A DNA stretch of 59,520 nt, the filler included, from Stramenopiles sp. TOSAG23-2 (Eukaryota): NCBI GenBank assembly GCA_900128395.1. It is 6 parts of 6 records of this genome, joined end to end, with 100 filler letters (N's around TTAATTAATTAA, not from the genome) between each part and the next. Parts side by side here need not be neighbours in the genome. Positions count along the whole stretch, not along the records: positions 39,768 to 49,594 come from LT650069.1; 5 more parts are not named here. One strand, given 5' to 3'. Shown here piece after piece: positions 107-49,694 of the stretch. A program made the position numbers and the translations under genes. The notes beneath the pieces are model-generated. The model made no database searches and was not told the origin of the DNA. It saw only the letters and a list, made by a program, of their open reading frames with translations. Position 1 is the stretch's first letter; each line of letters opens with the position of its first letter.

Positions 107-787
107 TGTGGTATGATGGCGTGGTGGTGGTAATGTTAGAATATATATATATATATATGTGATCGCAGATGATGTATGTTTCGTTGTTTTGTTTTGTTTT
201 TTTGTTCCATTACTATTGTGATATGAAAAAATGTTTTATTTATTTTATGTTTTTTGTTTGTTCTATAATAAAAAAAATAATAATATATAAGAAGTTGTTT
301 GCCAGTTTGCCAGTTTGCACAATAATTGAAATTATTAAAAAAAAAAACCCGATGATTATTAATTTTTACTCAAAATCATGTATTTTAATTCTATTTCTAT
401 GCTAATTATTAGTATTTTTTTTTTTGTCTCTCTGTCTCTCTCTCTCTCACTACTGTCCGGTGTTGGTTGCAAACCTCTTCATCAATAACTTTAATACGAT
501 GCTATGTGCCTGTAAAATACCTTAAGTAGGTAAATACAATGACCAACCAGATGAACCACATCATAGGAATGCCATATGATAATTTGTACTTAAAAGGGAA
601 ATTAGAATACCAGATAATATAATAACTTTATTATCCTGTATAAATCTAAAAAAAAAAAATCTTTTTTTTTTTTTTTATCCATTTTTCCATCCTTTATATT
701 GACATTTAGTGCTTTATTGAGAGAGATTATATAAAGATAGTCGAGTGAGTGAGTGAGTGAGAGAAGACGACTAGAATAGAAACTGTA

Positions 788-1001
788 GGTATATATATAT
801 ATATAGATGCATATGTACATATCATTACATTACACAAGAATAAGCATTAAGTAATTAAAAAAAGAAAATAAGATACAAAAAGTTACGTGGGGAAGGTATA
901 TATATATATATAGATGCATATGTACATATCATTACATTACACAAGAATAAGCATTAAGTAATTAAAAAAAGAAAATAAGATACAAAAAGTTACGTGGGGA
1001 A
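788..1001. repeat. exact 107-bp tandem duplication (788-894 / 895-1001)
   Basis: GGTATATA...AGTTACGTGGGGAA read twice at offset 107. Confidence 0.9.
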
Positions 1002-1011
1002 AAAAACAAAT

Positions 1012-2538
1012 ATGGGAAATGCTGATGGAGTACAAGCTGCATGTTATTGTTTGATGATATGCATTTCATTAATTGTATTTATTATACAAATGGCAACAGA
1101 TCCACCACCGGAACCTGGTCCAAGTGGCGGGGTGGTGGACAATAATACAACGATTCATAGTTGCAGGCATTTTATAACTGTGAACAATGTGACGTATCCT
1201 ATGGAATGTGGTGGCGAATGCAAAGTAGAAGATGGTATGTGTAATCCAGAATATGATGGTTGCGTAGGGAAAAAATACAAGAAAATATTATGCCCAAATG
1301 AACAACCTTGTGTTTATACACAAAGTTTAAAATCTGATTGTGAAGGATTATGTTATCCAGATGGAATGTGTGGAGATAAATTCACATCAATATCAAAAGG
1401 TGAGATGGAATTTCATTTAACAATGTCAGTAGTGTATACAATACTATGTATAACTACTCTCGTTGTTGTATTGCCACAATTTGGTATTATTGTTGATACC
1501 AGTAAACGTAAAAATTTATATCATTGGCCATTTTTTACTGGTGTTTTTGTTATAATTTCTTGGTCTTTCACAATTGCCTCTGCTGTTGGGCAAGATAAGG
1601 GGGGAGCAAGTGAATATAGTAAGTACTTTGTCTCTTAACATATATGTACATTGTCATATCTATTTTATGCTAACACACACACACACACACATATTATAAT
1701 ATATATTCATATAGATAATCGATTTATTACCATGTTAGTATTTGCTATTTGCTATTTTATGTTTATTACTGGTTTTACTGCAACCAAGGTTCAAAATGAT
1801 AGAGCAAACCGATTTTCTCATTATAAATTAGCAGCCATGTTTACAATATTGGTAATTATTGATATCATGCATTGTTCTATTGGTCAATCTCAAGGATGGT
1901 TGAAGGAAATTGGCGGATTGCATCCATATGTTTCGAAAGAAAGTAAATGTTACGAGGAAGAATACTTAGCTTATGTATATGGTATGTTAATCTTTGGATT
2001 TTTTACATATGCATTAACTTTAGTAGATTTTATTGCAACTGCTCGCCAAATGAAACATCTTGAAAGCATTCATCTCTTTCTATTTCAACTCAGTATACCA
2101 TCTTTCATCACATGGATATTGTACATTTCATTTTGTTACAACTGTAAAGATACTGGAATTACGAAATTGTATACGTTTGGAATAACATTTGTAATATTTT
2201 ATGCAATGTTTCTTTCGTTTTATGTATATGATTGGTTACATCATCATGTATTCAATAAAAAACATCAACCTACAACTGATGATGCTGTTGCTATTGCAAC
2301 CGTGCCTGCAATTAAATTAGAGGAAAATGATACTACTTCTAATGAAAATTCAGATGCACCTCCAATTGCAAGAGCTTGGTCTGAACATTATGAAATATTG
2401 CATGAAGAAAACAATCCAATATGTGGTACGTTTATGAATATTTCTGTACTTGGTTTATTGATTGTAGGTTTACAATTTATGCTTGTCGGTTGGTACATGT
2501 ATGTCATTCGGGAAAGGTTAAAATCAAGGCATTTATAA
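1012..2538 (+). CDS. two-exon polytopic membrane protein (~9 hydrophobic segments) with a Cys-rich loop; exons 1012-1618 and 1715-2538
   Basis: ORFs 994..1638 and 1651..2538 join in frame through a phase-1 intron 1619-1714 (GTAAGT...CATATAG); first ATG at 1012; Cys-rich segment after the first TM. Confidence 0.8.
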
Positions 2539-9854: not shown

Positions 9855-9954
9855 NNNNNNNNNNNNNNNNNNNNNNNNNNNNNNNNNNNNNNNNNNNNTT
9901 AATTAATTAANNNNNNNNNNNNNNNNNNNNNNNNNNNNNNNNNNNNNNNNNNNN
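9855..9954. other. artificial contig linker N44-TTAATTAATTAA-N44
   Basis: identical 100-bp spacer with six-frame stops. Confidence 0.98.
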
Positions 9955-19800: not shown

Positions 19801-19900
19801 NNNNNNNNNNNNNNNNNNNNNNNNNNNNNNNNNNNNNNNNNNNNTTAATTAATTAANNNNNNNNNNNNNNNNNNNNNNNNNNNNNNNNNNNNNNNNNNNN
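19801..19900. other. artificial contig linker
   Basis: N44-TTAATTAATTAA-N44. Confidence 0.98.
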
Positions 19901-29738: not shown

Positions 29739-29838
29739 NNNNNNNNNNNNNNNNNNNNNNNNNNNNNNNNNNNNNNNNNNNNTTAATTAATTAANNNNNN
29801 NNNNNNNNNNNNNNNNNNNNNNNNNNNNNNNNNNNNNN
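29739..29838. other. artificial contig linker
   Basis: N44-TTAATTAATTAA-N44. Confidence 0.98.
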
Positions 29839-39667: not shown

Positions 39668-39767
39668 NNNNNNNNNNNNNNNNNNNNNNNNNNNNNNNNN
39701 NNNNNNNNNNNTTAATTAATTAANNNNNNNNNNNNNNNNNNNNNNNNNNNNNNNNNNNNNNNNNNNN
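39668..39767. other. artificial contig linker
   Basis: N44-TTAATTAATTAA-N44. Confidence 0.98.
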
Positions 39768-40523
39768 CAAGTCTCGTTTACTTTTGCTACTACCATTTGA
39801 TGGACTTCGTTTAGCATGATGAGTCTTGCTTTTTGAAAGTCGGCGTTTGGATACTGATTTGCCACTGTTACTGCTACTTTTGTTTAATAATTTATGGCGT
39901 GATTTGTTGCTACCTCCAAGAATGCTGCGTTTTGATGAAGATTTGAGGGAGCTACTACCACCATTACTTGCACGAGGAGTGCCTTCACTACTGCTATTTC
40001 TACGAAATGAGCTTCTTCTTCGTTTCTTGCCTGTTGTATTGAAGCCGTCTCGTACAATTATACCTTCATTTTGTCCAACAGAAGTTTCTGTATTGACTTG
40101 AACCATATATTTAGTTCCAGGATTAAGTCCTTTCAAAACTAAATTATTAACTGTTGCATTTAAAGGTGCTGGTATACTTTCTGGCCACACAGTCCAATTT
40201 TGTTCTTTCACCGTTTTGTACTTTATTTGATATCCAGATATAATGATTCCATGCGTTTTGGGAGTTGCCCATTGTAATTCCAAACTATCGTCAGTTATAT
40301 TTGATGCTGTGACTGTTTTAACTTGATCAGGCTCATCGATACTGGTCCGGAGTGTATTGCTAGCCGGGCCTAATGAACCTAAACCGGCTTCGTTATGGCC
40401 GCGAACGCGGAATTTATACATAGAATTTGGAATCAAGCCATCGATGATCGTAATATAATGATTCTCTTTCGTCGGATCATGTGTCTGGTAAGAAGCACCA
40501 CTTTTGGTTTTTGGTGGTATCAT
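39768..40523 (-). CDS. fibronectin type III domain coding segment (starts mid-domain; 3'-truncated at the contig edge)
   Basis: GLIPNSMYKFRVRGHNEAGLG; LQWATP...GYQIKY...GLNPGTKYMVQV; Ser/Lys-rich tail. Confidence 0.8.
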
Positions 40524-41505
40524 ACTGTTAATTTTACGTTTTATGAGAGTAACCTACTTGTTTCTTTTTATTCAAATAAACTTTTTAATAATATCTGCAA
40601 AAGCTTTACAAAATAAAATCAAACTAAGAGTCATGAATACGTATCTCCCATTTTTTTTACCAATCGCCACCATTTTTTCGTATTTTGTATGCTTTTCAAT
40701 CTTCTTTTTCTTTTGCTGGATTCAATAGTAATTGTATGCGCTCATACGCTTGTCTACCTGTGATACCTACAATGATTAACAAGAAGAAAAAAGTACCCCC
40801 ATAGATTAAGTACATCAAATCTAAAGTGCCTCTACAAATGTCAGCGTATTCAAAGTCAAACTCCGGTGTTTTTTGCTTGATGCAGAAGACATTGCCCACT
40901 GTCGAAACAATATAAAATACAACAGAAATTAAGAGGGGTGATATTCACATTGTTCCACTAGAGAGTGATAATTTTTCATCCGAGCTCAGATATTAGCATA
41001 TAAATAGCATACTATACGGCTGCTATTTACCTTCTTACTAAATGTGATAGCAGTTGCGATAATGGACGTTATTGCAGTAACTCGGTGTGATTTTGGCATT
41101 ATCCTAAAAGCATGCTAAGTCTCCAATTTTAGGCTTTATTCATTTTCTTAGTCTAATTTGCCGGAAGTCTAAACATCCAAAAAAATGGTCATTTTGGGAA
41201 GTAGGGTTGAGTGTTTATAAATACCTTAATTATTACATTTTTTTTGTGCAGAAAAAATATAATATAATTTTTGTTGTGAAAAAAAATTGAATGACATGAA
41301 AGCAAAAAAGTTTGCAAAAATGTTATAAAAATATTAATATTATTATGTACCAACTGAAGACAACTGTCTTTAATAATAAATTTTGATATAATATTATAGT
41401 ATTCATATACAATGCGCATTGCAAATTATATTATATTGCTACAGCTTGCAGTACTGCTGCCAATGCAACAAGTCCCATTGCTTTTGGCAGCAACATATGC
41501 TTTCT

Positions 41506-41943
41506 TCACTTTCCGCAAGCAAGAGCACCATCATGGTAAGGGCTGTACCCAGAATTACCATATCCATATTGTGGCTGGTATGGAGATGGTGGCGATTCAT
41601 CACTCTCTGAGGAGGAGCTGCTAAGTGCAGCAGAATTTTGAGCTTGATAAAGATCATATGCACGCTGTTCCTCCTCCGAGAACTGAGGGTTCCCCGTGGG
41701 CCGCCCTCTCGTGACCTTCAAAGTCATCTTTGCTAACACTTTAGACAATTTTCCAAAAGTGTAGCAAGCGGCTTGCCCTCGTGTCAATTGCACACGAGTT
41801 AACGCTTCCGATGCTGCTGCTGCACGGGCCGCCGGGCCAGCTCCACGCCCTGGCAGCTCCAAGTTCCGCTCCATAATTGTAAGTAAAGCTTGAACTATTT
41901 GTAGCCCTACTCCTTCTTTCCAATTTGCTTTTTGTGAAGACAT
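41506..41943 (-). CDS. transposon-borne ORF1, 145 aa, possibly a degenerate Myb/SANT-like helical protein
   Basis: ATG start; GC-richer than host genes; ANWKEGVGLQIVQALL...YTFGKLSKVLAKM helical pattern; Ser/acidic then Pro/Tyr-rich tail. Confidence 0.55.
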   Translation of the reverse strand: MSSQKANWKEGVGLQIVQALLTIMERNLELPGRGAGPAARAAAASEALTRVQLTRGQAACYTFGKLSKVLAKMTLKVTRGRPTGNPQFSEEEQRAYDLYQAQNSAALSSSSSESDESPPSPYQPQYGYGNSGYSPYHDGALACGK

Positions 41944-41951
41944 TTGTCTTG

Positions 41952-41996
<45 letters not shown>
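41952..41996. repeat. (ATT)n microsatellite directly upstream of ORF1
   Basis: about 15 ATT units. Confidence 0.9.
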
Positions 41997-42003
<7 letters not shown>

Positions 42004-42258
42004 ACTATTATTATTCTTGTTGTTGTTGTTATTGTTCTATATCAATATATCTCACCACCACACCATTTTTTTATACCATTTTTTTAAAAAAAGCCTAAGA
42101 TATAGCTGATTTAAGAGTTGCTGACAGCCACCCAATCCGTCAGCGCAAAATGTCAGCCACTGATGACTGATCGATCACAGGCAATTGCAATTGATTGTTT
42201 ATTATTTTTTCTTAGATGCCTAGATGTATTTTTAGAATTTATTAATGCAAAAAATATA

Positions 42259-42635
42259 TAAATTTCCATTAAGGGCTAAATATTCCCTTAGTATACATAA
42301 TTTCATGCCTACCAATCTGTCAAAACTATATTTCATATTTAAAACTAATTAAAATGTAAAAATTAAATTATATTTTGTGAACATGTATCGCATTTTTGTA
42401 CTAAAAAGTGACTTTCCCTTAATGTATTTTGGCCGTCTGATTTATTTTTAGAAATTCATGTCAATTTTAATAAATTTCCATTAAGGGCTAAATGCACCCT
42501 TAGTATACATAATTTCATGCCTACCAATCTGTCAAAACTATATCTCATATTTAAAACTAATTAAAATGTAAAAATTAAATTGTATTTTATGAACATGTAT
42601 AGCATTTTTGTACTAAAATGTGACTTTCCCTTAAT
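42259..42635. repeat. two ~165-bp imperfect direct repeats inside the transposon (42259-42423, 42471-42635)
   Basis: TAAATTTCCATTAAGGGCTAAAT...GTGACTTTCCCTTAAT twice at offset 212, with scattered substitutions. Confidence 0.9.
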
Positions 42636-42825
42636 CAAAAGTCACAACAAAAGTCGTAAAATACCTTAATTATTCTCGAAAAATTACAACACCAGCTTTT
42701 TTTTTTCTCCTCTCTGTTTTTTTTATACATAAATATATATTTAACTTTTGTTTTAAATTAACTTAGTCAACGTTGTATACATAAACACTGTATGTTTAGA
42801 GAAATAATCATAAATAGAAATAACT

Positions 42826-43632
42826 ATGGCAACAGATAAACCACATTACTCATCAGACCCAGATTTTTCAGATGATCTTTCAGATGAAGATATAGCTATG
42901 TCTGATCCCAATTATAAAAACAGCAGAGAAGCATATATGTTACGCTTAAAAAAAAGGAAAAACAAGGGTGGTAAATCTCCAAGATCTTCCATTGCATCAA
43001 TAATAGAAAAAGAAACACAAGTAGAAGAAGGAAATGCTGCAAGATCCAATGAAGTAGGGGGAAATCAAAAGAGAAATAAGAAGAAGAATAATAAGAAGAA
43101 GAATAATAATAAGAAGAAGAAGAAGAAAAGTAAGAGCAGGATGGGAGATACAAAAAAAAAAGGAAAAGATGGAGCTGATGGAGCTGATGGAGAAGATGCA
43201 ACAGCTGTAGCTGCAAAAAGTATGTCGTCTCAATATCACACCAATTCTCCATTAAGCAGTATGATGAAGGGAGCTTATTTGAAAAATAAGAAAGATTTTA
43301 ATTATCAAAAGTTTTATGATGAAGAAATTAAACCAAGTGAAGTTAAATACAGAAAAGTATTTATAGCTGAAGTATGCTTTGCTGGTTTTCCCTTTGAGGA
43401 AACATTTGCCTTGAAACAGCAAATGGAGCAAGGAAAATGTCCGTTCTTCAAAATGCGAATTCCAAAAATAAATTGCAAAAATTGCAAAAATCAAACCAGA
43501 AATGCATGCTTCCAGCATGGCCCACTGTGTGGGCTGTGCTGGAAAGCAACACATGTTGAGTGTAGGAAAGTCCCCCCTGAAAAATTTTTTCAAAGGAAAA
43601 AACAACGTCTTGGAAAAAGTGGAAGTATCTAA
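42826..43632 (+). CDS. transposon-borne ORF2, 268 aa: acidic N-terminus, Lys-rich NLS-like tract, C-terminal Cys/His zinc-binding domain
   Basis: SSDPDFSDDLSDED; KRNKKKNNKKK...; CKNC-x7-CFQH-x3-CGLCWKATH. Confidence 0.75.
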   Translation: MATDKPHYSSDPDFSDDLSDEDIAMSDPNYKNSREAYMLRLKKRKNKGGKSPRSSIASIIEKETQVEEGNAARSNEVGGNQKRNKKKNNKKKNNNKKKKKKSKSRMGDTKKKGKDGADGADGEDATAVAAKSMSSQYHTNSPLSSMMKGAYLKNKKDFNYQKFYDEEIKPSEVKYRKVFIAEVCFAGFPFEETFALKQQMEQGKCPFFKMRIPKINCKNCKNQTRNACFQHGPLCGLCWKATHVECRKVPPEKFFQRKKQRLGKSGSI

Positions 43633-43740
43633 AATAAATATAAAATATAATTTTTTTATTTAAATATAATTTTTAGTTTTTTTGTTCCGGATCGCTGTTT
43701 TTTTTAGGCGATTTTATCATTTCTTCCCAAAAAACACAAT

Positions 43741-43889
43741 AGCAGGGACACAGTAAAAGAAATTGAATAGTATAGAAATAGCACTCTGTTTTTTCTGGAA
43801 ATTTCCCCTCCAAAAAGCAGGGACACAGTAAAAGAAATTGAATAGTATAGAAATAGCACTCTGTTTTTTTTGGAAATTTCCCCTCCAAA
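43741..43889. repeat. 75-bp subterminal tandem repeat (2 copies, 1 mismatch) inside the transposon
   Basis: AGCAGGGACACAG...TTTCCCCTCCAAA at 43741 and 43816. Confidence 0.9.
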
Positions 43890-44303
43890 GCATCATGACA
43901 CTGGGCCAAAAAACCGCTTGAGTGTCCTTTAAATTTCTAATTTTCCAGGCCTTAAGATTTTTTTTTAAGGAAATCGACAAAAAAAACAATTATTTACAAC
44001 ATTTTCTGTTCCGTCCCTCACAATGATATTTACCTGCTAATAACATGCAAAAAGTTACTGCAATAACGTCCAATACGCGTGCCTCTGGGAGTGCTTTGTA
44101 ATTTGTAATCGGTTACGTATATATATGAAATATATAAAGCATCAAATAATCTTCTTTCGTAAAAAAATATCATAGCACCACTACCACATATGTAAAATAC
44201 AAGAGAGAGAGACATTGGACGTACATATACATATATAGATATATATAAACAAATACAACATAGAAATAGAAAATGAATGGAACATCAATCACATGGTGGT
44301 ACG

Positions 44304-45069
44304 ATGATATATCGCCGCCATTTCCATCAGCACCAGTAGTGTCACCAACATCAAGACTGAAGCTACCACCGTTACCAACATTACCTGTACCAATTTTAAA
44401 TGTCATATCACCAGCTTTGCCTCCAGTTGCATCACCAGTTAGTGCGATCTGACGTTGGTGTTAATGAATAATGTTTTGCAGATCTAAGTATTAAATCTCC
44501 ATCTAAATATTCGTGTCCAACAATGTGGACTTTTTCGATTGGATTCAAAGTACCAATACCTAATTTTTCAACATTACAACCACATCTGGTGCTAGTACAA
44601 CTGTAAAAGCTGGGAGTAACATAGCCATTACAGCTTCCTCTGGTAATTTCCAAGCAACAGCTGGTACCGCAATATCAATGAATGCTGGAAGTGCAATATC
44701 AACTACTTCTGGAACATCAACCACATTAAATGCAGGAACAGATATGAACTTTGTTGCTGGAACTTTGAAGATTCCAATAAAACACAAATTGGATTGATCG
44801 CTCAAGATGTGGAAAAAGTGTTCCCAGAGTTGATCCATACGTGGACTGCAACAAATAACGTAGCTAATGAAACCAATACTACAAAAAACAGTACAAATGT
44901 TGAAGAACAAGCAACAGAAGTAGAAAAGTCAGTCAAGGATGAGTTTAAAGCAGTCGATTATTCCAGATTGAGTGCTGTAATTGTAGAAGCAATGAGAGAA
45001 CAAAGATCAATGATGGAAGATCTGGAAGCAGAAATTAAAAAATTAGAAAATCAATTTAACAAACAATAA
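44304..45069. pseudogene. scrambled fragments of a tail-fibre/beta-helix-like gene ending in a peptidase S74 (intramolecular chaperone) domain
   Basis: minus: GDATGGKAGDMTFKIGTGNVGNGGSFSLDVGD and KLGIGTLNPIEKVHIVG; plus: TTVKAGSNIAITASSGNFQATAG..., then in another frame QIGLIAQDVEKVFPELI...AVDYSRLSAVIVEAMREQ plus coiled coil, stop at 45069. Confidence 0.7.
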
Positions 45070-45350
45070 AAAAGAAGAAATGTGTGTGTGTATTAACTAG
45101 TGTTTTAAAACACAATTATATTTAATTAATGCACATAATTTATTTTTAATAAAATCTAAAATATTATAAATACGGTCGTATATAATACTCGTACATATAT
45201 ATAAAATGTTCTCTTACTCATATATTATATATGATATAAATTTCTTTTACTCCCGTTCATTAACATCTCAAATCAAAAATGATTTATAAAGTTTTAGTAA
45301 AAATTATTTAGTATTCAAAAGATTGTTCCTCTGTCTGTGATTCAGAGTTA

Positions 45351-45382
<32 letters not shown>

Positions 45383-45521
45383 TATATATAAAATGTTCTC
45401 TTACTCATATATATATATATATTATATATATATTATTTTATCAAAATAACTATAGCGTAAAAAAGAAATTAAAACCATTTCGGTACACTTTTTATTTTTC
45501 TTCTCTACACGACGTACACAT

Positions 45522-46765
45522 TTACTTGGATAATATTTTTCCTAAGTTATGTGGTAAAACTTGTGGCATTTGCAAGGGTGGTTTTCTGACAGAGATTAGA
45601 ACAATAATATGTAACAAGACACCAAATTTTCTAGGTGTCAACGATTCATCAATACTGATGTTACATAATCTATAAATTTTCAATAATTCTTTTTCTGTAA
45701 TTTTATTTTTGAAGAAACGGGTTTTCTGACAGAGATTAGAACAATAATATGTAACAAGACACCAAATTTTCTAGGTGTCAACGATTCATCAATACTGATG
45801 TTACATAATCTATAAATTTTCAATAATTCTTTTTCTGTAATTTTATTTTTGAAGAAACGAAATGCTTTCTTACCTGAACAAATGCCTGTCTTTTCATCTT
45901 TTAAGTTTACAAATGTTGTATTAATGTATTTTTTTGCATCTTCTGTTGTTAATTTCCATTGACTTTCATCTATTGCTGATATTTTTTTCTTTAATTCTAC
46001 ATCTTCTGCTATAAAAATATTTTTTTGCATATCATTATTAATATTGGTATTAGCAGCTATTACTTTCCTTTTTGAAAATTGATGTGCAAAATTTATTTGA
46101 AATACATCGTGTGCCGGATCGTCTCCATATAATACATTAATATTATTGCTGGTTGACAAACGCATATTTTTCCACACATGACCTACATCTGTTGCATCAT
46201 TCGCACCCTTGCGTAAGCTAGTGGAGCCTCTTTTATTTGATATCTTTTTTTCACTTGACAAATCTAAACCCAGCATTCCATTATTTTTAGCTGTAATGAA
46301 ATTACTTCCATGAACATCATCGAATCTCAGCAAAAGTCGTTTTAATAATAGTAGCAATTCCCCATGTAATTTTTCTATACGTTTTTGTGTTGGCAATTTA
46401 AAATCTTTCTTATTACTCATGTTAATATAAGATTGCTCCACCATATTTTGTACCTTTTCTAATAAACGGTGGGATTCAAAAGGATTATCATTGCTTTCTG
46501 ATATTGCAACAAGCGCTACTGCATTATTTAAAATGATACGATAATGTCCATGGAACAAATGCAAATCATTGCTATCATTTAAAATTAATGATCCATACAT
46601 GTGTTTATTATTACTATTATTATTATTTACATTGTTGATATGTGGTATTACTTGATAGATATTCTCAAATGCTACTTTTTTTGTCATGACACCACGTTGC
46701 TCCACTATTAATGGTGTATATTTATTATTTCCTTGCAACAATAAAATGGCTACACATAGTACCAT
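45522..46765 (-). CDS. longin-like N-terminal domain + C-terminal EH domain protein; true 3' end masked by a 140-bp duplication
   Basis: EH motif WKLTTEDAKKY...TGICSGKKA...LLKIYRLCN...LTPRKF; collapsing the duplication gives ...ISVRKPPLQMPQVLPHNLGKILSK* (stop 45522-45524), which fits the EH P..LP..L end. Confidence 0.7.
45580..45859. repeat. exact 140-bp tandem duplication inside coding sequence
   Basis: 45580-45719 equals 45720-45859. Confidence 0.92.
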
Positions 46766-47347
46766 ATTTTACTTTTATTTTTCTCTCTAAATTCTATCTT
46801 TCTTAAATAGTTTTTTCTCACACCCCCAACGGTGATGTTGCATATTCTTGTTTGCCCTGCATACATTATTATCTAAAATTATAAAAATATAAAATATTAT
46901 ATAAAAAAGATTTATTATTCAATCACTACTAATAACTACGAGGACTATTTATTTATTAAAATACCGAAATCCAGGAAATCACGACGAAATCTGGAAATCA
47001 CACACGCACACACCACCACATCATTTTTATATTAAAAGTACAATGAAATCAAGGTGCGCAAAAAATTATTAAGCCCAAAGCAAAAAAAAGCTATTTTAAA
47101 AAGTTCGCAAATTAAGCGAGATCACAGATTAGCATTGACACAGCACGTATAATAAAATTAATTCGCTCCAGGTTTTTTCTGTTGTTGTTGTTATTTTATT
47201 TATACATACAGGCCTTCTTTGCTGGTTTTTTTGACGATATTAATAATTATAAATTGAAACATAGAAGTGAAAAGATATATATACAAGTATTTAAATATTG
47301 TAACAAGATTATATATATATATATACGGTGTGCGATACACAAATAAT

Positions 47348-49594: not shown

Positions 49595-49694
49595 NNNNNN
49601 NNNNNNNNNNNNNNNNNNNNNNNNNNNNNNNNNNNNNNTTAATTAATTAANNNNNNNNNNNNNNNNNNNNNNNNNNNNNNNNNNNNNNNNNNNN
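49595..49694. other. artificial contig linker
   Basis: N44-TTAATTAATTAA-N44. Confidence 0.98.

Follow-up and report, generated by a model that had tools for sequence, protein, structure and literature searches.

In the genome of Stramenopiles sp. TOSAG23-2 (GenBank assembly GCA_900128395.1), we identified a segment of DNA bounded by terminal inverted repeats (TIRs) that is probably one copy of a low-copy class II DNA transposon, that is, one of the cut-and-paste, TIR-bearing kind, without a transposase gene. The segment occupies positions 41064-44071 of a 59,520-nucleotide stretch consisting of six parts of six records of this genome joined end to end (the window, in whose coordinates positions are given unless stated otherwise), and lies in the part that comes from record LT650069.1. 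The element is young, Pangu-like at its ends and equipped with two private genes; it is ordinary as a type of mobile element, but its cargo is unusual. What carries this conclusion is a pair of perfect repeats, a duplicated target site, and copies of the element at different loci that resemble one another only as far as the repeats.

The left TIR, GGACGTTATTGCAGTAACT, is 19 bp long, starts with GG and lies at 41064-41082 (plus strand), and the right TIR, at 44053-44071 (minus strand), is its exact reverse complement; both emerged from the sequence itself, a repeat search and a pattern search. Directly outside them, AAT can be read at 41061-41063 on the left and again at 44072-44074 on the right, forming a 3-nt target-site duplication (TSD), and the distance between the two AAT trinucleotides, TIRs included, is 3008 bp. 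The initial annotation, made from the sequence alone, had described perfect 19-bp TIRs flanked by AAT, and we read them at the same coordinates and nowhere else in the window: with up to three mismatches allowed, the 19-mer occurs twice in the 59,520 bases, as the two TIRs, and two or more matches of this pattern were obtained in 0 of 100 dinucleotide-preserving shuffles (shuffle mean 0.01). The pair is also the sole inverted repeat in the whole window that is at least 19 nt long, has its arms within 6 kb and is not of low complexity. The repeat finder reported it (pair I19) as 23 nt at 96% complementarity because the T/A nucleotides adjoining the TIR arms also pair; we note that extension of the inverted repeat to 20 nt by a T/A pair is an automatic product of a duplication of the form A-N-T. 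The probability that two random 3-mers of the region agree is 0.024.

Eight metagenome loci contain the 19-mer, one of which (L001, 3230 bp) is a true copy of the element. The other seven are chance matches, with similarity confined to 19-23 nt or, in L003 and L006, to 29 nt at 90%, as are three matches to the TIR in prokaryotic genomes, which are 19-20-mers in archaea. Compared with the window, L001 has three substitutions in 42897-43586 and no differences in 43659-44075 (99.6-100% identity), and between these stretches lies an indel-rich, divergent patch (43587-43658) at the 3' end of the second open reading frame (ORF2) of the element. Past 44075, there is no alignable sequence between L001 and the window, and the right flank of L001 likewise begins with AAT. 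We also placed Logan contigs of four sequencing runs (assembled contigs, not reads) on positions 39770-47000. X1 is the probable source run, X3 and X4 belong to two other named organisms (B and C), the relatives' assemblies being small (5.9-8.6 Mb), and the fourth run is X6; uncovered parts in X3, X4 and X6 were counted as evidence only where contigs continue into unlike DNA. The X3 and X4 contigs cover 41063-44041 at about 99% identity, their depth is zero on both host flanks (39770-40979 and 44126-45093), and outside 41063 they run on into unlike DNA for 1911 bases in record 7 of X3 and 221 bases in record 14 of X4. Two joints in X6, 41346>45196 and 43653>44121, were taken as spurious; their sides measure 22-23 nt and fall in AT-rich sequence. 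Given that records 1 and 4 of X1 span both ends of the element with 0 differences, the junctions are not an artefact of the window assembly. Similarity of 99-100% that ends at both repeat ends, with unrelated DNA beyond, argues for transposition rather than orthology or segmental duplication. The mobile, TIR-bounded element proposed in the initial annotation is thus borne out by copies with unrelated flanks (L001, X3 and X4), and what that annotation had named as telling against it is not what we found: there are further copies bounded by the TIRs, and our searches met neither ORF beyond the element family.

The flanks of two copies share a further feature. When the 22 bases outside the right repeat of L001 (its positions 1920-1941) and the 22 bases outside the left repeat of the window copy (41042-41063) are both read towards the element, 15 of 22 agree, a level that only about 0.01% of 9678 22-mers taken from the window reach, while the right flank in the window agrees with these two flanks at just 7/22 and 8/22 positions. 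The agreement could stem from a target preference that reaches further outwards, or the two insertions may have landed, in opposite orientations, in copies of some other short repeat; an extended TIR is ruled out, as the copies diverge at the 19-bp repeat. Elsewhere in L001, positions 579-1451 (minus strand) hold a neighbouring gene for a protein of 270-290 amino acids with a signal-peptide-like start and Gly/Asn/Thr-rich repeats, which matches no Pfam family and has no relation to the window sequence.

From these observations, we envisage that a DDE transposase supplied in trans by an autonomous relative elsewhere would recognise the 19-bp TIRs and excise the element, which would then be inserted where an A-N-T target has been cut with a 3-nt stagger, repair of the stagger yielding the AAT duplication. 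No transposase was found in the window copy itself. Neither of its two ORFs matched a Pfam family, even at E-values up to 10, and of 38 stop-to-stop frames of at least 40 codons the 22 that were scanned gave no match at the Pfam cut-off (0/22) and no transposase, the other 16 being of 40-54 codons. The longest such frames inside the element have 272, 148, 135 and 133 codons. The 32 other ORFs of the window that were scanned include no transposase either. Because it carries no transposase, this copy is non-autonomous (or an internal-deletion derivative), in agreement with the initial annotation, which had called the element transposase-free and non-autonomous and had seen no DDE-sized ORF in it.

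A recurrent rearrangement breakpoint at 41524-41527, met in five independent records (L001, the protein P0002, X3, X4 and X6), marks the place where an internal segment may have been lost. Downstream of segment A, as we term the left TIR plus left subterminal DNA (41064-41526), L001 departs from the window after 41526, continues with 43 other nucleotides and resumes at 42897, without 41527-42896. P0002 corresponds to residues 78-141 of the first ORF (ORF1) at 96% identity and then diverges, at codon 141-142, into an unrelated Gly/Ser-rich tail, and the contig matches of X3, X4 and X6 begin or stop at 41524-41526 and are followed by unlike DNA, which amounts to 277 bases to one side and 72 to the other. 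Read most economically, these records mean that related copies would carry extra DNA, at least about 350 bp, between 41526 and 41527. It is possible, although we would not call it probable, that the window copy derived from such a longer parent through loss of DNA at 41526/41527, and we infer that L001 would be a further internal-deletion derivative, having lost most of the extra DNA together with 41527-42896. Non-autonomous DNA transposons usually arise by internal deletion with extra DNA at the junction, and Ds from Ac and the deleted P elements are internally deleted derivatives of autonomous DNA transposons of this kind. The likeness to them lies in the ends being shared and in the internal deletion with extra DNA at the junction (in L001, 43 nt instead of 41527-42896); the difference is that the autonomous parent is unseen here and that the direction of change, deletion as opposed to insertion, is deduced. 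At the same place, positions 2361-3230 of L001 (minus strand) form an open frame of 289 codons made of a hydrophobic leader (segment A, plus strand), the 43 nt and ORF2 from residue 25. The window copy would join the same leader in frame to ORF2 (41412-41535 with 42896-43632) if a putative intron, with its GT at 41536 and its AG closing at 42895, were spliced out.

The two genes are arranged head-to-head, with start codons 882 bp apart, confirming the two divergent ORFs of the initial annotation (145 amino acids on the minus strand, 268 on the plus strand). ORF1 (41506-41943, minus strand; 145 amino acids, 50% GC) was delineated by ORF scan, composition and structural modelling, contains an RGRP motif and has a putative Myb/SANT-like three-helix N-terminal half. 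RGRP occupies residues 79-82 and is presumably an AT-hook-like core. In a language-model atlas search, 8 of the 10 best family-bearing matches of ORF1 fell into one clan, with Myb/SANT-like families named, and an AlphaFold2 model made without an alignment (predicted local distance difference test, pLDDT, 49.6) places helices at residues 7-27, 37-51, 58-79 and 90-106. The C-terminal half of ORF1 recurs in the proteins P0002 and P0003, which come from contigs of 6638 bp and 13452 bp, respectively. Between the window and the X3/X4 copies, ORF1 has five differences, four of them synonymous (T22, Y61, S112, S114) and one a replacement (A58T), an outcome with a neutral expectation of p 0.014 when all changes are considered and 0.05 when transitions alone are; this gives a hint that ORF1 may be under purifying selection. 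Given that PHIS elements (PIF/Harbinger and its related groups) typically need a Myb/SANT or MADF partner, we tentatively propose, with rather less than even confidence, that ORF1 may be a Myb/SANT-like, DNA-binding accessory protein that would bind the element termini, like those carried by PHIS elements.

ORF2 (42826-43632, plus strand; 268 amino acids, from the ORF scan) has an acidic N-terminus, a Lys/Asn-rich middle and a C-terminal Cys/His module (43474-43563, plus strand) whose residue positions read C217-x2-C220-x7-C228-x2-H231-x3-C235-x2-C238-x4-H243-x2-C246. We consider it probable that ORF2 encodes a zinc-binding nuclear protein. It is intact in L001 from residue 25. A HMMER search of 1.84 billion representatives with ORF2 returned two fragments of other copies, P0004 (92% identity to residues 1-53) and P0005 (75% identity to residues 210-268, with all 8 of the 8 Cys/His residues kept), and one low-complexity match. 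The ORF2 model, again made with AlphaFold2 without an alignment, is mostly disordered (pLDDT 44.4), an atlas search with residues 165-268 gave no family, and a comparison with prokaryotic genome contigs gave nothing. The Cys/His module matched a zinc-finger peptide of DNA polymerase alpha weakly (E 0.26), and sequence searches of the PDB with the two ORFs returned rows at E 0.26-0.84 only. Within the divergent patch at its 3' end there are several indels, yet both versions of ORF2 finish in ...GS(I/V)-stop; the alternative C-terminal tail is common to L001 and the diverged P0005, which suggests that exchange between subfamilies may have taken place.

Relatives of either gene beyond the element family were not found. 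By shared words, there were none among 5.8 billion cluster representatives, in which proteins of near and of greater length were considered for ORF1 and those of near length for ORF2; in these searches 0 of 2106 candidates passed for ORF1 among longer proteins and 0 of 428 for ORF2 at near length. The initial annotation had called the element unannotated, which holds for ORF2, for which there is no entry, not even itself, but not for ORF1, whose exact protein is present in a collection under a eukaryote-proteome source. Its two intact accessory genes are both open in the window, although constraint on the second is not apparent, with one synonymous change in seven. The roles it had suggested for them in DNA binding, targeting or anti-silencing were not borne out, beyond the weak Myb/SANT-like lead for ORF1.

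A number of observations weigh against the interpretation of the segment as a transposon mobilised in trans with two functional accessory genes. No contig in X1, X3, X4 or X6 joins 41063 to 44075, as an empty site would. Both ends are visible in one copy, so that the duplication rests on one complete case plus two half-sites, and in X3/X4 the match breaks off at 44041, with 30 bases still to go to the right end and with the contigs continuing for 1755 and 167 bases, so the right terminus of these copies may differ from that of the window copy. A single copy seems to be present in the source organism, judging from contigs that are unbranched at both ends (depth not being equivalent to copy number). 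Neither an autonomous copy nor a transposase with the same TIR was found in the collections searched, which contain almost no eukaryotic genomes. As regards the genes, the differences in ORF2 between close copies comprise six non-synonymous and one synonymous, compatible with neutrality, and one antisense frame across ORF1 also has four of five changes synonymous, though it is not open and the ORF1 frame alone is. The atlas scores of ORF1 reach at most 0.77 to Myb/SANT-like and MADF clusters, below the guide value of 0.9, and its Myb/SANT-like nature finds no support from Pfam, from PDB sequences or from Foldseek on the low-confidence model, which returned 0 matches at E <=0.001.

Spy elements, of the PHIS assemblage, are not known to produce a TSD. 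In the available part of one survey, the other PHIS groups are characterised by TSDs of TWA (PIF/Harbinger), AT within an A|AT|T target (ISL2EU), CWG (NuwaI), TNA (NuwaII) and ANT (Pangu), with Spy as a sixth group distinct in its TSDs (PMC4482050). The same part describes Pangu as having TIRs of 11-40 bp that usually start with AG or GG, an autonomous consensus of about 3487 bp and two ORFs, and reports it, in 34 catalogued families, from heterokonts, algae, animals and fungi (PMC4482050); the available part of PMC11071193 makes no statement on TSDs. Against this description, AAT fits ANT, a 19-bp TIR with a GG start falls within the Pangu range, 3008 bp is near the consensus of about 3.5 kb, and the element has two ORFs, no motif being recognisable in the second. 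The ANT form is seen on both sides in the window and at the right end of L001, and the X3/X4 matches, which start at 41063, imply a flank that ends in T rather than a full AAT, which is compatible with ANT but no proof of it; a random 3-mer of the region is ANT with a probability of 0.106. The window copy differs from Pangu in having no DDE transposase and in that neither ORF matches a known family, the fit being judged by the description of the ends. PHIS groups are defined by their transposase, of which there is none here, and we therefore call the element Pangu-like at its ends and do not file it as a Pangu member. Judged from the ends alone, it is only a little short of an even call that the autonomous partner would be of the PHIS/Pangu type.

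PIF/Harbinger elements have two genes, one of which encodes a DNA-binding partner of the Myb/SANT or MADF type that mobilisation requires, according to the available parts of two sources (PMC4482050; bioRxiv 10.64898/2026.05.26.728016). Our element resembles these descriptions in its 3-nt duplication, its two-gene layout and the presumed movement of non-autonomous copies in trans; it differs from them in its AAT, where PIF/Harbinger has TWA, and in that the Myb-like nature of ORF1 is a weak lead. PIF/Harbinger proper was rejected on the TWA rule, since the duplication is AAT and a shift by one base gives TAA against ATA and hence no duplication. ISL2EU was rejected as well, because insertion into an A|AT|T target would leave AAT at the left end and ATT at the right end, where the element has AAT instead. 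The likeness to the PIF/Harbinger (PHIS) group that the initial annotation had drawn consequently survives as regards PHIS/Pangu-type ends and fails as regards PIF/Harbinger itself. Where it gave AWT as the Pangu target, the rule in the available part of the published description is ANT (PMC4482050).

A different superfamily with 3-bp TSDs, such as Zator, CMC/Chapaev/Mirage or Academ, or one as yet undescribed, could have given rise to the element, its Pangu-like ends being a coincidence; we consider this unlikely, yet a serious alternative. Several superfamilies have TSDs of 2-4 bp, superfamilies are defined by a transposase that is absent here, and no relative of either ORF was detected beyond the element family. 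TSD length or composition, moreover, varies inside some superfamilies, as the available part of PMC4482050 states. Against this stand the fit of AAT to ANT at a random probability of about one in ten, the fit of the GG start and the 19-bp length to Pangu, and the L001 half-site, which is also AAT. For Zator, which the initial annotation had offered as an alternative, the comparison is with the description of one family, and no transposase is at hand here: Zator-1 of amphioxus shares 3-nt duplications, perfect TIRs and cargo between the arms, and differs in its 33-bp TIRs and TAA/TTA duplications, as opposed to 19 bp and AAT, in the available part of the source (PMC12905397). The length of the Zator duplication thus fits and its composition does not. 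The segment might, alternatively, be no transposon at all but a host cassette of two genes, a segmental duplication or a rearrangement, bounded by inverted repeats by chance and moved by recombination. The apparently single source copy, the lack of an empty site in the contigs and of a transposase, and the listing of the exact ORF1 protein like an ordinary predicted gene under a eukaryote-proteome source would all suit such a cassette, which we nevertheless regard as very unlikely: on either side, the copies cease to be similar where the repeats end (at 41063 in X3/X4, at 44075 in L001), a 3-nt duplication flanks the complete copy, identity of about 99% inside with no alignable flank cannot be orthology, and searches by shared words and, for ORF2, by HMMER recovered neither ORF from beyond the element family.

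We give even less credence to an unconventional autonomy, in which ORF2, with its zinc-binding module, would by itself or together with ORF1 act as a small recombinase of a new kind or recruit a host nuclease. In its favour, the window has both ORFs intact, L001 has an intact ORF2 from residue 25 onwards, P0005 retains the Cys/His pattern, and no autonomous partner was found, although the missing partner means little when the collections searched hold so few eukaryotic genomes. ORF2 is, however, mostly of low complexity, with a largely disordered model in which no fold of catalytic-domain size and no acidic triad is evident, and six of its seven changes between close copies are non-synonymous. 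An integrated small linear replicon, plasmid- or virus-like and ending in inverted repeats, seems to us the least credible explanation, indeed extremely improbable. Its TIRs, its two small divergent genes of atypical composition (ORF1 has 50% GC, the genome about 32%) and its wide occurrence in marine metagenomes would be in keeping with a replicon; there is, however, no polymerase, capsid, Rep or integrase among its scanned frames, a viral contig collection gave nothing for the TIR, ORF1, ORF2 or the L001 junction DNA, and a 3-nt TSD is typical of DDE transposition. Distinct from these explanations, and in our view improbable, is the idea that the family may maintain and spread the two genes rather than a transposase, that is, a recent horizontal spread of a transposase-less gene shuttle in which ORF1 would act as a novel factor, Myb-like but highly divergent, that binds the termini and the zinc module of ORF2 could provide or recruit the cutting. 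It derives from the 99-100% identical copies at unrelated loci in three named marine organisms and from the pieces found in many ocean metagenomes.

The interpretation that we favour, a non-autonomous TIR transposon with Pangu-like ends, bears on gene-dense, intron-poor marine protist genomes, which are thought to hold few mobile elements and whose DNA transposons are poorly catalogued. A young, clean-ended element is a marker for an autonomous partner, for Pangu/PHIS activity in the lineage and for exchange between related marine organisms, and the two orphan genes are candidate accessory transposition factors. We stress that the known mechanism of such elements is unchanged by the finding, whose use lies in catalogues of protist mobile elements.

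Between its ends, the element contains several further features. The left subterminal segment (41083-41505), identified from sequence and composition, is non-coding, has 30% GC and is kept at 99-100% identity in L001 (in part, 41442-41526), X3, X4 and X6; a search of the subterminal DNA for a repeated binding motif gave nothing convincing, just homopolymer-rich 8-10-mers. An (ATT)n microsatellite, evident in the sequence and in the repeat search, lies just upstream of the ORF1 start (41953-42000). The internal direct repeats noted in the initial annotation are real and comprise two pairs. One, in the ORF1-ORF2 intergenic region (42223-42635, family D2, from repeat search and alignment), consists of units of about 200 bp at 42223-42423 and 42439-42635 that are 90.5% identical over 201 nt, with a 166-nt core at 95%; the other, in the right subterminal region (43738-43887, family D4, from the repeat search), consists of two tandem 75-nt repeats at 97% that are present in L001 too.

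The element sits in the AT-rich genome of a single-celled marine eukaryote, and its surroundings are rich in coding sequence. GC in the window is about 29-39%, for about 32% in the genome, and long uninterrupted eukaryotic ORFs abound, among them those for ORC2, a HECT ligase, NAP, an arrestin, PP2C, a JmjC protein, GH20, GH38, a sulfatase and an FN3 protein. Taking the element and one AAT out of the sequence does not recreate a long host frame, since the longest one to span the junction has 95 codons and is of low complexity, and the insertion is therefore intergenic. By composition, ORF1 is foreign to this setting, with a GC content at third codon positions (GC3) of 0.39 against 0.18-0.27 in 15 host ORFs of 29-39% GC, while ORF2 is host-like (35% GC, GC3 0.27). 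The runs that contain element DNA are marine: 12 DNA runs from marine metagenomes, of which X6 was the one placed on the window, each hold 19-28% of the sampled element words, and three metatranscriptome runs hold 6-8%.

To the right of the element, the region 45094-45335 (core about 45192-45290) has a summed contig depth of 50,346 in X1, compared with about 40 alongside, and of 3854 in X3, 2020 in X4 and 8422 in X6, and numerous contigs terminate at 45196-45200 and 45276-45290. Beside (TA)n tracts, a 34-nt unit, made of a TA-run followed by AAAATGTTCTCTTACTCATATAT, occurs twice, 187 bp apart; positions 45379-45412 are part of the same observation. Either the three organisms share a short repeat of very high copy number, or the TA microsatellite accounts for the depth. 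Further on, 45580-45760 holds a 140-bp tandem duplication, at which X1 and X6 contigs jump from 45579 to 45720 and 140 letters fit on either side. Two more perfect inverted repeats, 18 nt long and AT-rich, are found in other parts of the window, at 15903-15920/18324-18341 (about 2.4 kb apart) and 32089-32106/33756-33773 (about 1.7 kb apart). Finally, paired runs of 44 N bases recur about every 10 kb (9855-9954, 19801-19900, 29739-29838, 39668-39767 and 49595-49694); they look like masking rather than assembly gaps, and one pair interrupts the FN3 gene immediately to the left of the element.

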